A stretch of DNA of 28,282 nucleotides from Gemmatimonadota bacterium (GTDB lineage: Bacteria; Gemmatimonadota; Gemmatimonadetes; Gemmatimonadales; GWC2-71-9): assembly GCA_039591655.1 (NCBI GenBank), contig JBDHDE010000061.1, forward strand, positions 1 to 28,282, given 5' to 3'. Position 1 is the stretch's first letter, and each line of letters starts with the position of its first letter. Shown here one piece after another: positions 3,001 through 27,538 of this stretch. The position numbers are program-made.

Positions 3001-6000
3001 GTGCGTGACGGCGCACCGCGAGACTCAGAGGGATATATAGAACTGAAGACAGCCAACCTAGCCGGTTGGCTGTCTTGCTATTGCCCCGCCTAGGATCGAA
3101 CCAGGACTCTTCTGATCCAGAGGGGCTTCGCCCGGGATTCGGTCGCTAGGGCAACAATCACTCATCTCGGGCCTGCAGCCGTTGGAGTCTGCCCTTGATG
3201 GCGCGCAGCAACTCCGATTGGGGAACAGGCCTCGCCAACTCGAGCTGGAGCGCCTGTTCGAGGCTGGCGACTGCCGCCGACGTATCTCCCTGGATCTGCT
3301 GTAGTCTCCCGAGCGAGAGGTACGCAACGGCAGTGTGCGGGTATCGGTCCACGGCGAGCCGCACAACCTCGAGGGCAGGCTCGATGGCAGGGAGAGTGAC
3401 GGACAGAGTCCGGTACACCGACAGCGGCACGTCCACCGGCCACCCGTATCGGCTTGACAGGTCCTCGAAGAACCCGTCCACCGCGGCCAACCCTTCCTGC
3501 AATACCTCGCTTGGAACGAGCCAATCCGAGTACAGGGCGCGCAGGCCATCGAAATACGCCTTGTAGGGCGCATGCCCGTGGTTCTCACCTGGAATCTCCA
3601 CAAAGGCGAAGTCGAGGACCGGTTGCCGCTGACGGGCAAGGAGCGGCACGAAGTTCCTCCGCACGGCGCCGTCCATGTCACCGCCTTCCAAAGCGCCGAG
3701 CGTGATCACCAGACGCTTCGGGGACAACGCATCACCGTTCCTCAGCCGTCGCCGCGTTTCCTTCACTGTGACCGAGTCATCCCACCACAGGCTCGGGCCG
3801 ATAGCCAGGTAGCGCGAGAACAGGCGCGGTCTCTCGAGATACGTGTGCACTGTGAGTAGCCCGCCGAGAGACCACCCTGAGAGGATGCGGTGGGGATGCG
3901 TACGGTACGTTGATTCCACCAACGAAAACAGCTCCTTCTCGAAGAACTCCAGAAAGACCTCAGCGCCCCCACTCGTGGGGAAGCTGAGTCGGCCCTGGCT
4001 CTGTTCCGGCGCGTGCGTAGGCGTGAAATCCCGGTTGCGATCGACGTTGACCACCCCCACCACGATCATCTCGGGGATCGGATGCTGGCCGCGCTGATAT
4101 CCCAACTCAGAAAGGAACTGGACGGCAGAGGCAGCCTGTTGGAAGAGGTACTCCGCGTCCAGCACGTACAGCACTGGGTAGCGCCGAGAGGAGTTCTCAT
4201 ATCCGTCGGGCAACAGCACGAGAACGGTTCGTTCTTCGCCGAGCACCTGTGAGTGAAACGTGATCTTGTCTGAACCCCGCAGGTGCTCTGCCTCTTGCCC
4301 CACTCGACCTCTCGCTGGCGGTGCTGCGAGAAGCGTCAGGATACCAACAAGGGCGCCCAGCCCTGCGAATGCGGGCATAGTTCGCACGAATCGACCAGTC
4401 GTCATTTCTCTTTTCCATTCTTTCAAAGTCGTTGGTTGGCAGCAGCGCCCGGTCAACCGGATCACGGGCGCAGAGCTGCTCAGACCCGCCGTTCTTCCAT
4501 AAGATGCTCTGGCGGACTCCGAGGTTCCCATGAAGCGAGGGCGGATTGCCGTCTTTGGAGAGGTCTGCGCGACCCAACGCGGGTCCTCAGACACCGCTAA
4601 CAAGGGGGAATCCGCTCGGGATTCGGCGGCTCTTGAGCATCCTGAACGATCGCTTCTGTCGCCAAATACCCCAGACCTGCTCGTGATTCGGGACCCTGAA
4701 CGGGCGCGAGCAGAACACTTCTACTGCCCCCGCAGGTGCGTGCGCGGGTTAGGCATCCTACTTTTAGTGCAGGCCTAGCCGAGGTTGTTCGATGACTGAC
4801 CAGCTGGATTGCCTCAAGGCTGCCCTCGCCGACCGCTACGCCATCGAGCGCGAGATCGGGCGCGGCGGGATGGCGACGGTCTACTTGGCTGAGGATCTCA
4901 AGCACCACCGCCAGGTGGCGGTCAAGGTGCTCCATCCGGATCTGGCCGTGGCAATCGGCGCCGCACGATTTCTACGGGAGATCGAGATCGCTGCCAAGCT
5001 CACCCATCCACACATTCTCCCGCTGCACGACTCCGGGGAGGCGGACGGTTTCCTCTACTACGTGATGCCCTACATCGAGGGTGAAACGATGCGGGGCCGA
5101 CTCCGGCGAGAGAAGCAACTGTCACTCGACGAAGCCCTACAGATCACGCGCGAGGTCGCCGACGGTTTGAGCCATGCACACAGCCTTGGGGTGGTCCATC
5201 GCGACATCAAGCCGGAAAACATCTTGCTGACGAGCGGGCACGCGGTGGTCGCCGATTTCGGAATCGCGCGAGCCATCACGGAGGCGGGAGGAGAGAGACT
5301 CACGGAGACCGGGTTGAGCGTCGGGACGCCGGCGTACATGAGCCCCGAGCAAGCCATGGGGCAGCAGGACGTCGATGCCCGCAGCGACATCTACTCGCTC
5401 GGCTGCGTGGCGTACGAGATGCTCGCCGGCGATCCGCCGTTCGCGGGCACCAACCCGCAGGCGATCCTCGCGCGAAAGACCTTGGAGCCCCCGCCCCCCC
5501 TCAGAACCGTGCGAGACACGGTGCCCGCGGCCGTCGAACAGCCGATTCTCAAGGCCCTCGCCAAGGTGCCCGCGGACCGGTTTGCGACGGCGGCCCAGTT
5601 TCGCGATGCACTTGGATTCACGCAGCCGTCGGGCACGGTCGTTGTTCGGCAGCCGCGGCGGCTGTCTAAGCCACGCGCGGTGGGGCTGGTCGCGCTGCTG
5701 GCCGTCGTGATCGCCATCGGAGGCTGGTGGATCTCGCGTGCGTTCGCCGACGGTGGAGTCGAGTCACTGGTGGTCCTGCCGTTCTACAATGCCACCGGAG
5801 ATCCCGAACAGGATTACCTCGCCGCGGGAATGCACGACGCGCTGATCAGCACGCTGAAACAGATCGGCGAACTGCGCGTGACATCGCTCACCTCAGCGAT
5901 GCGATACAAGGACACCGAGAAATCCATCCCGGAGATCGCGCGCGAGCTGAACGTCGACGCGGTCGTGGAGGCTTCGGTTCTGCGGAGCGGCGACAACGTG

Positions 6001-27000: not shown

Positions 27001-27538
27001 ATCACGTTCACGGGCGAGCGGCCCGGCGGCTACTGGGAAGACCAGGGCTACCCATGGTTCGGCGGCGTGTAAGGCTGGGCCTCTGCGCCGGGGTACTCCT
27101 GGCCGTCGCGTGCGGCCGGGAGCGTGACATGCCCGAGACGATGGAGCTGCGGGATTCGATGCCCGTCATGCGGGCGCTCGAGGACGGGCGGGCGCGGGAT
27201 TCCATGCTCGACACCATGCCGGGCGGCGAGATGGCGCGCGGCGACTCGGCGGCGGCGGCGAGACTGCTCGAACAGAAGCGGTAGCGGGCGCAGCGGCGGC
27301 GCACGTCAGCAGCGGTCGCCGTACCCCTGGGATCGAAGCAGACTCTTCTGATCCAGAGGGCCGGTGCTAAGGGGCCCAAACCCGGCAGAATGTCACACTA
27401 AACGCGGGTTCGTGTCGTCCTTTGCCGGGTTTGTACGGCAGAGTATCGGCTTAGGACGGCATGTTGTCGTGTCAGATGTCGTGATTTGTCGTGTTGGCTC
27501 ACGGATACGACAGTCTTGCCAGCATCGGCTCAAGTTGA

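Follow-up and report, generated by a model that had tools for sequence, protein, structure and literature searches.

How do rows of small gene units come to be divided by pieces of one and the same tRNA gene, when the units themselves carry no integrase? The question is raised by a stretch of 28,282 nucleotides (hereafter the window) on contig C61 of a Gemmatimonadota genome (G000; 3.31 Mb, 149 contigs, 67% GC), in which a preliminary description had noted repeated junctions containing the 3' half of tRNA-Gln(CUG). From the comparison with related genomes we consider it probable that such arrays are tandem tRNA islands, which were stacked by tyrosine integrases and have since shrunk to integrase-less, CIME-like units.

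Junctions and cargo of the window

All direct repeats of the window belong to one family and lie on the − strand. Including partial copies, they mark nine junction sites at start-to-start distances of 651–9723 bp, in agreement with the 0.6–10 kb given before. The eight same-strand copies of ~170 bp in the preliminary description do share one strand, but they are better described as nine unequal sites, only four of which are near full length (junction 3, 10031–10191; junction 6, 15530–15697; junction 8, 17625–17778; and junction 9, 27326–27506). Two more have a shortened arm (junction 4, 10667–10754, and junction 7, 16375–16482), and the other partial sites are an arm without core (junction 2, 7115–7254), a 3' half without arm (junction 1, 3081–3122), and a coreless stub (junction 5, 14504–14538). 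Read in the sense of the tRNA, a junction consists of a ~150-bp arm, in which CACGACA repeats precede an inverted repeat that surrounds the motif GGACGACACGAACYCGC, and then of the anticodon loop of tRNA-Gln(CUG) and the remaining 3' half of the tRNA. This half had been regarded as a regular part of the junction; it does start at the anticodon loop, but is whole in only two of the nine sites. The exact 11-bp core CTCTGGATCAG occurs seven times in the window, always on the − strand, where 0.01 occurrences are expected and none of 100 shuffles reached seven. Profile searches gave E-values down to 1e-54, which are not independent of the window copies since the profile was built from them. The window arms are mutually 62–81% identical over 150 bp, and ARAGORN detected no tRNA genes in the window.

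Followed from the left, junction 1 keeps its tRNA half whole from the anticodon loop (one mismatch), has its arm deleted, and is followed by a terminator-like hairpin (3046–3076); its equivalent in a relative (G004:C284) also has a short arm, but a different downstream neighbour. Next to it lie an esterase with TPR (3158–4405, −; 92% identical protein in G004:C284) and a Ser/Thr kinase with TPR repeats (4792–7122, +). Junction 2, an arm that has lost core and tRNA half, adjoins a Ser/Thr kinase with a PD40 propeller (7250–9937, −). Junction 3 (full arm, core 10034–10044, 14-nt tRNA stub) and junction 4 (the arm half nearest the core, core 10685–10695, 26–29-nt stub) flank the smallest unit, of 651 bp, whose cargo is a 62-aa protein (10292–10480, −; 98% identical in G009:C15). 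Then come an amidohydrolase (10958–12214, +), a nested 3' end fragment of tRNA-Pro(GGG) that matches in 27 of 27 nt (12274–12300, −; the Rfam match is weak and below the gathering score) and is likely the end of another tRNA-targeting element, and a Ser/Thr kinase (12596–14491, +; 91% identical in G008:C50). Junction 5, a tRNA 3' stub with neither core nor arm, is followed by a glyoxalase-family protein (14582–15079, −), and junction 6 (arm, core 15559–15569, near-whole 3' half with one mismatch) has behind it a hairpin common to five other junctions. Beyond it are a 192-aa protein without Pfam family (15661–16239, −), junction 7 with an internally deleted arm (core 16402–16412, 34-nt stub), a SnoaL-like protein with a 124-aa protein (16486–17393, −; 93–95% identical in G009:C15), and junction 8, whose arm is full and whose stub stops at the core (17625–17635). 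The long interval up to junction 9 holds a Ser/Thr kinase with TPR repeats (17811–20438, −), a module of TonB-receptor-like protein, ECF sigma, anti-sigma, and Ig-domain protein (20804–25255, −), and cytochrome b561 with a molybdopterin oxidoreductase (25731–27072, +). Junction 9 has a full arm, with the CACGACA repeats and the inverted repeat around GGACGACACGAACYCGC, the core at 27348–27358, and a damaged 3' half. The next unit opens with the start of a peroxidase gene (catalase-peroxidase-like; 27668–28282, +), and the end of this unit also precedes a junction in G009:C44, with a different neighbour there.

The cargo in total (four Ser/Thr kinases, esterase, amidohydrolase, glyoxalase, SnoaL protein, TonB/ECF module, and molybdopterin oxidoreductase pair) is of the gene types listed in the preliminary description (Ser/Thr kinases, hydrolases, SnoaL), and these were recovered by a Pfam scan of the window ORFs. 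The same scan returned neither recombinases nor replication or packaging families among the 20 ORFs, and with integrase profile searches empty on C61 as well, the statement that the contig lacks an integrase holds. The array extends past the window: the left end of C61 overlaps C69 by 114 bp, C69 adds one more decayed site in the same sense, and further sites lie on C95, C10, and C6, giving ~16 in G000.

Conservation of arm, core, and tRNA half

The Gln junction is indeed genus-wide, being present in 11 of 11 genomes including G000, and a search with a single junction as query was positive in 10 of 151 genomes of the family. In a collection of species the exact 22-letter motif of the arm was found in 44 rows, 42 of them titled Gemmatimonadota, and in viral contigs it had no exact match. 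The sites compared below (57 arm junctions and 13 armless tRNA-sequence sites) come from fetched stretches and not whole genomes, and were mostly located by the arm profile, which biases them towards a kept arm and a lost tRNA half. Across the 57 arm junctions, the 11 bases of the core are each 93–100% conserved and the distal tRNA half only ~30–50%; the 3' half is whole in 8, contains a T-loop insertion of ~50 nt in 7, and is cut short in 42. Most stubs end 11–32 nt past the start of the core, and from 49 of the 57 junctions the tRNA can no longer be restored, a count that does not represent independent events since stub families recur. Certain left ends are found repeatedly across species, namely the T-loop insert (14 sites in 6 genomes) and a kinase leader (8 sites in 7 genomes). 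The motif itself occurs in 72 distinct contexts, 56 of which have a core downstream, at 61–62 bp in 55 cases. Seven of these 56 cores belong to the anticodon loop of tRNA-Lys(CUU), with a motif spacing of 62 bp in all seven, and lie in integrase-less kinase rows such as L208.

None of the 15 predicted pairs in the inverted repeat of the arm has changed on both sides (28 sequences), and no Rfam family matches the arm, the single sub-threshold match falling on the Pro fragment. On these grounds we infer that the inverted repeat represents double-stranded protein-binding sites. The point at which homology between sites changes is the tRNA core, ~20 bp beyond the inverted repeat, and the layout as a whole resembles a tyrosine-integrase attachment site that would cross over in the anticodon loop. 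A coding reading of the arm is argued against by 1–2-nt indels between copies. The downstream leaders were considered as left-arm sites and rejected, leader family B being off-core in 9 of 10 G000 matches.

Integrases, array heads, and neighbours in related genomes

A PF00589 search of G000 returned the four tyrosine recombinases that had been reported, none of them on C61: XerD, a XerC-like protein, a partial IntI on C97 that exceeds the TIGR02249 cut-off, and, next to a tRNA gene on C127, a fragment. Serine recombinases had no match in this genome. In G010, an initially weak match (P0001) proved to be a full-length tyrosine integrase of 420 aa, with the catalytic columns R-K-H-R-W-Y invariant across its family and without a match to TIGR02249. 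Its gene converges on an intact tRNA-Gln(CUG), ending ~80 bp from it. The integrase-like ORF placed near a Gln junction of G122 in the preliminary description therefore exists (G010:C30, probably the same genome), but adjoins an intact tRNA gene and not an internal junction. The P0001 family comprises 282 homologues in Gemmatimonadota, with a tRNA at 24 of the 30 best loci; the four closest (61–65%; one of them, G077, is unpublished) abut tRNA-Ala(CGC)-Gln(CUG), and a metagenome scan with P0001 gave just one near-identical record. An island with a P0001-type integrase in G029 has its far end 9 kb off, at a 3' half beginning at the anticodon loop. On the single contig of G086, an intact tRNA, a split integrase more distant from P0001, and an excisionase-like HTH gene adjoin one another, followed by an arm with a decayed stub (an inner junction), one gene, and an arm with a whole half; both arms contain the motif, at 83 bp from the core and not 62. 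At L197, an arm junction leads into the left end of a P0001 element (91% over 177 bp) that keeps the last 18 integrase codons, and by this match the unit is a decayed integrase-bearing island inside an array.

No integrase matching the window's type of arm was found in the genus, and in G000 neither of the two integrase families is represented by an intact tRNA-targeting enzyme. P0001 is unlikely to be the integrase of this arm, as the islands of its type bear a different arm with other repeats. A weak integrase at L219 (family A3) was rejected as the cognate enzyme, since it comes with a separate arm and the motif is missing from its Lys islands in G086 and G078. Two integrase profiles, run over 29 junction-bearing stretches (556 kb), returned a single remnant; this remnant, on G001:C83, follows a Pro-type fragment and was rejected as a Gln element. 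The G086 integrase had no match in G000 and, among the eight genus genomes searched, matched only P0001 of G010, which is not close. Since the P0001 arm differs, the G086 spacing is 83 bp, no close match to the G086 enzyme was found and the one remnant belongs to a Pro site, we do not name an enzyme for this arm; the G086/G041/G205 clade provides the best candidate.

Among the 11 genomes of the genus, several of which are incomplete, three yielded an intact tRNA-Gln(CUG). For G000 the gene had been reported as not assembled, and this can now be qualified: a 5'-truncated copy is located inside C6 (95434–95482), with array-type cargo following it, in an assembly that misses other tRNAs too. The truncated copy comes directly after a hydrolase gene, which adjoins ada in all nine relatives with a match, and in G000 ada sits on C10, behind further array cargo. 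The G000 array thus likely lies between the hydrolase (C6) and ada (C10). In run X3, a loose end contains this hydrolase end together with slightly more of the tRNA 5' sequence (short; three records). In G003, the native gene after tRNA-Ala(CGC) has a T-loop insertion and a shortened acceptor stem, its native 5' half being joined at the core to the T-loop-insert half, and an integrase-less unit of 1.9 kb is next. This stub is found again in G005, in front of the same cargo and apart from any tRNA 5' half. The broken G003 gene may result from insertion of the 1.9-kb unit or from excision of units ahead of it, either by crossover at the core. A third head of this kind lies mid-contig on G010:C19, so that broken tRNA genes head three arrays (G000, G003, G010:C19).

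The earlier claim that cargo has different neighbours between species was borne out by a comparison of the flanks of 70 sites (2415 pairs), in which three pairs shared the upstream flank and five the downstream flank at 80% identity or more, and none shared both. At 75%, on 52 sites, ten pairs shared one flank and again none both. The window sites among the shared-flank pairs are junction 9 (with G009:C44) and junction 1 (with G004:C284). Units that are 90–95% identical between genomes change neighbours at junctions, where the placement of the switch is limited by the conserved 60 bp before the core; breakpoints being no finer than this, recombination within the arms may also account for the switch. 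Cargo also moves irrespective of junctions. The TonB/ECF module is found in five genomes and abuts a junction in two; in G000 it is inverted relative to the other four, in which its orientation is opposite to that of the junctions. Fragments of tRNA-Pro are likewise nested within arrays. Contigs from 4 of 14 public runs, compared with positions 2600–22500 of the window, have long pieces ending at junctions and gave no well-supported skip of a unit; the joints have short sides (21–32 letters) that fit repeats or other strains, and speak neither for nor against excision. None of the listed public runs with window sequence is an RNA run.

Origin of the arrays and known counterparts

Under the stacking and shrinkage of tRNA islands that we favour, a new element would integrate into the anticodon loop of tRNA-Gln(CUG), 7 nt long, displacing older ones outward, and each junction would thereby come to unite the right arm of one unit with the left end of its successor. 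Deletions would remove the integrase gene and most of the adjoining tRNA half, sparing arm and core. A passing element could then supply a matching integrase, upon which the kept sites would recombine and units be excised, inserted or carried along (cis-mobilisation), an exchange after which the tRNA gene heading the array might in some cases be broken. Since the blocks are enzyme-less, yet have different neighbours between species, they are likely shrunken mobile islands that are still reshuffled by passing elements. The one integrase remnant in 556 kb is fewer than plain decay might leave, which counts against this explanation.

It is unlikely, if still worth weighing, that the rows are instead a dedicated cassette system, in which small units are born without an integrase, a trans-acting enzyme joins arm and core to gene-adjacent DNA, the arm is under selection, tRNA repair is abandoned, and rows start at pseudo-tRNA heads as an integron analogue. 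Such an origin would suit a core that is spared in the 49 junctions unable to rebuild the tRNA, the left ends recurring across species, the identical motif and spacing in the tRNA-Lys(CUU) rows, the three broken heads, and a median unit size of 3.3 kb (n = 38). The 49 are, however, non-independent (recurring stubs) and shaped by sampling with the arm profile, L197 and G086 indicate descent from integrase-coding islands, leader family B is mostly off-core, and beyond XerC/D the genus shares no conserved trans-acting recombinase. Doubtful to the same degree is that parts of tRNA islands have become an integron analogue, with one arm module serving tRNA-Gln and tRNA-Lys, capture and reordering by an integrase in trans, no further repair of the tRNA, occasional knock-out of its gene, growth from pseudo-tRNA heads distant from the original locus, and a supply of genes to the large kinase repertoire of the lineage.

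The low identity of the window arms, the five of nine window sites that are partial, the lack of an intact tRNA-targeting integrase in G000, and the nested Pro fragments and junction-independent cargo would all befit dead fossils of old island insertions, whose neighbours changed by RecA-type recombination or deletion between arms of 70–85% identity and by other mobile elements. We judge this improbable, in view of a near-invariant core, a motif spacing fixed across species and two tRNA targets, and shared units that change neighbours at the junctions. Hardly credible is a reading of the arm as a single-strand hairpin of the integron attC type on which the IntI of C97 would act, or as a structured RNA or REP-like element beside tRNA fragments: the arm does contain an inverted repeat and the partial integrase does exceed its cut-off, but that repeat has no pair changed on both sides and no Rfam family, homology switches outside it at the tRNA core, and the IntI is incomplete and on another contig.

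The island origin that we prefer has published precedents. CIMEs, in the part of PMC7563491 that treats them, are decayed elements that keep their att sites and move by accretion, and those of Streptococcus are integrase-less units of 1–13 kb, in tandem behind the target gene (PMC7563491, which cites Pavlovic 2004 and Bellanger 2011). The arrays resemble them as tandem rows of integrase-less units at a target gene that keep att sites at least in part. Genes for recombination, mobilisation or conjugation were not found (Pfam, 20 window ORFs; two integrase profiles, 29 stretches; the searches in relatives did not extend to relaxases), and right arm and core are kept while left ends are mostly truncated. 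As to the third hallmark, derivation by deletion from an integrase-coding ICE or IME, descent from an integrase-coding island is seen for one unit (L197) and suggested by G086, and the parents may or may not have been ICEs or IMEs. The Streptococcus composites consist of two or three elements beside an ICE or IME (PMC7563491), whereas we count nine sites in 28 kb and ~16 in G000, most genomes are without an active element, crossover would be at the anticodon loop, and the tRNA halves are mostly unusable. As portrayed in sections of PMC3146451, the ssrA islands of Dehalococcoides include 15 in tandem without an integration module, proposed to be cis-mobilizable. Common to both systems are many tandem islands marked by target repeats, but Dehalococcoides has a serine recombinase and a 20-bp repeat (PMC3146451), whereas the rows here go with tyrosine integrases, the motif in their 150-bp arm keeps a fixed spacing, and their units are far smaller.

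The Islander tDNA islands with an anticodon-centred subsite, as covered in portions of PMC4383910, share the tyrosine integrase, the crossover in the anticodon loop, and the displaced 3' fragment. Here, same-orientation fragments from the anticodon loop are evident in the seven exact cores and in the G029 and G086 ends; an island's own tyrosine integrase is absent from the window and, bar the one remnant, from the 556 kb, though present in the tRNA-adjacent elements of G010, G029, and G086. Unlike Islander islands, most units here would not restore the tRNA, with whole 3' halves in 8 of 57 junctions and a broken gene in G003. Tandems were counted there only with an integrase for each member, and four had three or more (PMC4383910), so rows such as these would be missed. 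Tycheposons of Prochlorococcus (10.1101/2020.12.28.424599) and additive flexible islands (PMC10872708) are tRNA-seeded islands enlarged by one insertion after another, and contain dispersed partial tRNAs and fragments of integrases as here; the window differs in having no replication or packaging genes, and a long conserved arm in place of a tRNA piece alone. SXT tandems are also mentioned in a part of PMC5812530.

The preliminary description had proposed an integron-like accretion of cassettes. That small units without an integrase accrete at a tRNA-derived site, and have different neighbours in different species, is supported, whereas the integron is an analogy only, given a site laid out like that of a tyrosine integrase, the lack of compensatory pairs, and at least one unit that is a decayed island. 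In integron arrays, small variable units that contain no enzyme follow one another, each with a recombination site that recurs along the row, and in this the present arrays are alike. Integrons have intI and attI adjacent to the array and an attC that is a covarying hairpin; C61 has no intI and only the partial gene on C97 exists, the site is conserved in sequence itself (as judged without an attC covariance model), its core is tRNA-derived, and genes lie in both orientations. The arrays thus resemble rows of CIMEs or additive islands, and integrons loosely; they are not an integron. In the literature covered, which excluded subscription journals and supplements, we did not find such rows described in Gemmatimonadota. 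Tandem decayed tRNA islands are a known kind, with CIMEs and the Dehalococcoides ssrA islands as precedents; new here are the density, the same fixed arm geometry at two tRNA targets, junctions that no longer repair the tRNA, and arrays with broken heads.

Since the tools for mapping tRNA islands demand an integrase per island, they overlook rows like these, which account for a large part of the variable genes in this genus. With dozens of naturally occurring variants, a single attachment site can be divided into what must stay (core, arm motif, and spacing) and what may go (the tRNA half), and the set points to candidate integrases. If single units are mobile in trans, this would be a second way of capturing genes in the style of integrons, with loss of the tRNA gene as a side effect.

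Analogous arrays had also been proposed for tRNA-Arg, Leu, Pro, and Met. In G000 we found three Arg(CCG) junctions with an arm of their own on C35, three Leu(UAG) 5'-half repeats on C5, and two Met repeats on C106, but the Pro fragments are four single copies scattered over four contigs and form no array. Among public runs, the best matches to the window sequence are marine sediment metagenomes.

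Junction rows based on tRNA-Lys and tRNA-Arg

The arrangement of junctions seen at tRNA-Gln(CUG), in which an arm, an anticodon-loop core and a remnant of the tRNA 3' half bound units of cargo, has analogues for other tRNAs. In the DNA stretch L208 (6400-16505, minus strand), an intact tRNA-Lys(CUU) gene is followed by three junctions, whose central arm motif is the same as at the Gln junctions. The Lys(CUU) units hold one gene apiece, two of these being kinases, and no integrase was found within the row. A 788-aa ORF without a Pfam family is convergent with the tRNA-Lys(CUU) gene. 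In the source genome, G000, three tRNA-Arg(CCG) junctions (C35:64264-68500, minus strand) have a conserved arm of CCACGAGCG repeats and bound single-gene units, encoding a kinase and a 373-aa protein. In the assembly, the tRNA-Arg(CCG) gene within its tRNA cluster (C6:2114-2179, minus strand) is missing 8 nt from the anticodon loop, through either real damage or an assembly effect. Its 3' part, together with what follows it, matches the third of the C35 junctions, where the core is missing up to the same point.

tRNA fragments and insertions

The 5' half of tRNA-Leu(UAG) is present in three copies in G000 (C5:2391-16509, minus strand), with ~70 bp of conserved sequence upstream. Since the left end of this contig overlaps that of C95, which carries further Gln sites, the row of Leu copies may lie directly beside the Gln row. 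For tRNA-Ala(UGC), the 5' half stands alone (G000:C104:5458-5498, plus strand), breaking immediately after the anticodon arm into unrelated DNA. In a relative, an inverted tRNA-Gln junction (L233; G009:C26, about 73200-73350) with an arm of the type found in genome G029 lies within a tRNA-Met island, which also carries a truncated integrase from another family. The tRNA-Gln(CUG) gene of G003 (L128:190-311, C204, plus strand) contains a ~50-nt, hairpin-forming insertion in its T loop, which was found at 14 sites in 6 genomes of the genus and also in another genus. This insertion may be an unusual intron, although the acceptor stem of the G003 gene is damaged too.

Repeats beside the junctions

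A GC-rich REP-like hairpin (window 10200-10223, 10549-10570 and 20648-20698) frequently lies immediately upstream of an arm or of a member of leader family B, one of the recurring leader sequences. Under a strict pattern G000 has 24 such hairpins, and many of these sit on flexible contigs. Another shared sequence of ~120 bp immediately follows junctions 4 and 8 (window 10546-10668 and 17463-17559, minus strand), with no other copy in G000.

Integron integrase and kinases of G000

An incomplete integron integrase, of which the C-terminal two thirds are present, is encoded at G000:C97:6083-6718 (plus strand) and scores above the TIGR02249 cut-off. Across many contigs of this genome, a single kinase N-terminus matches the starts of over 40 Ser/Thr kinase genes, a large expansion that extends beyond the junction rows.
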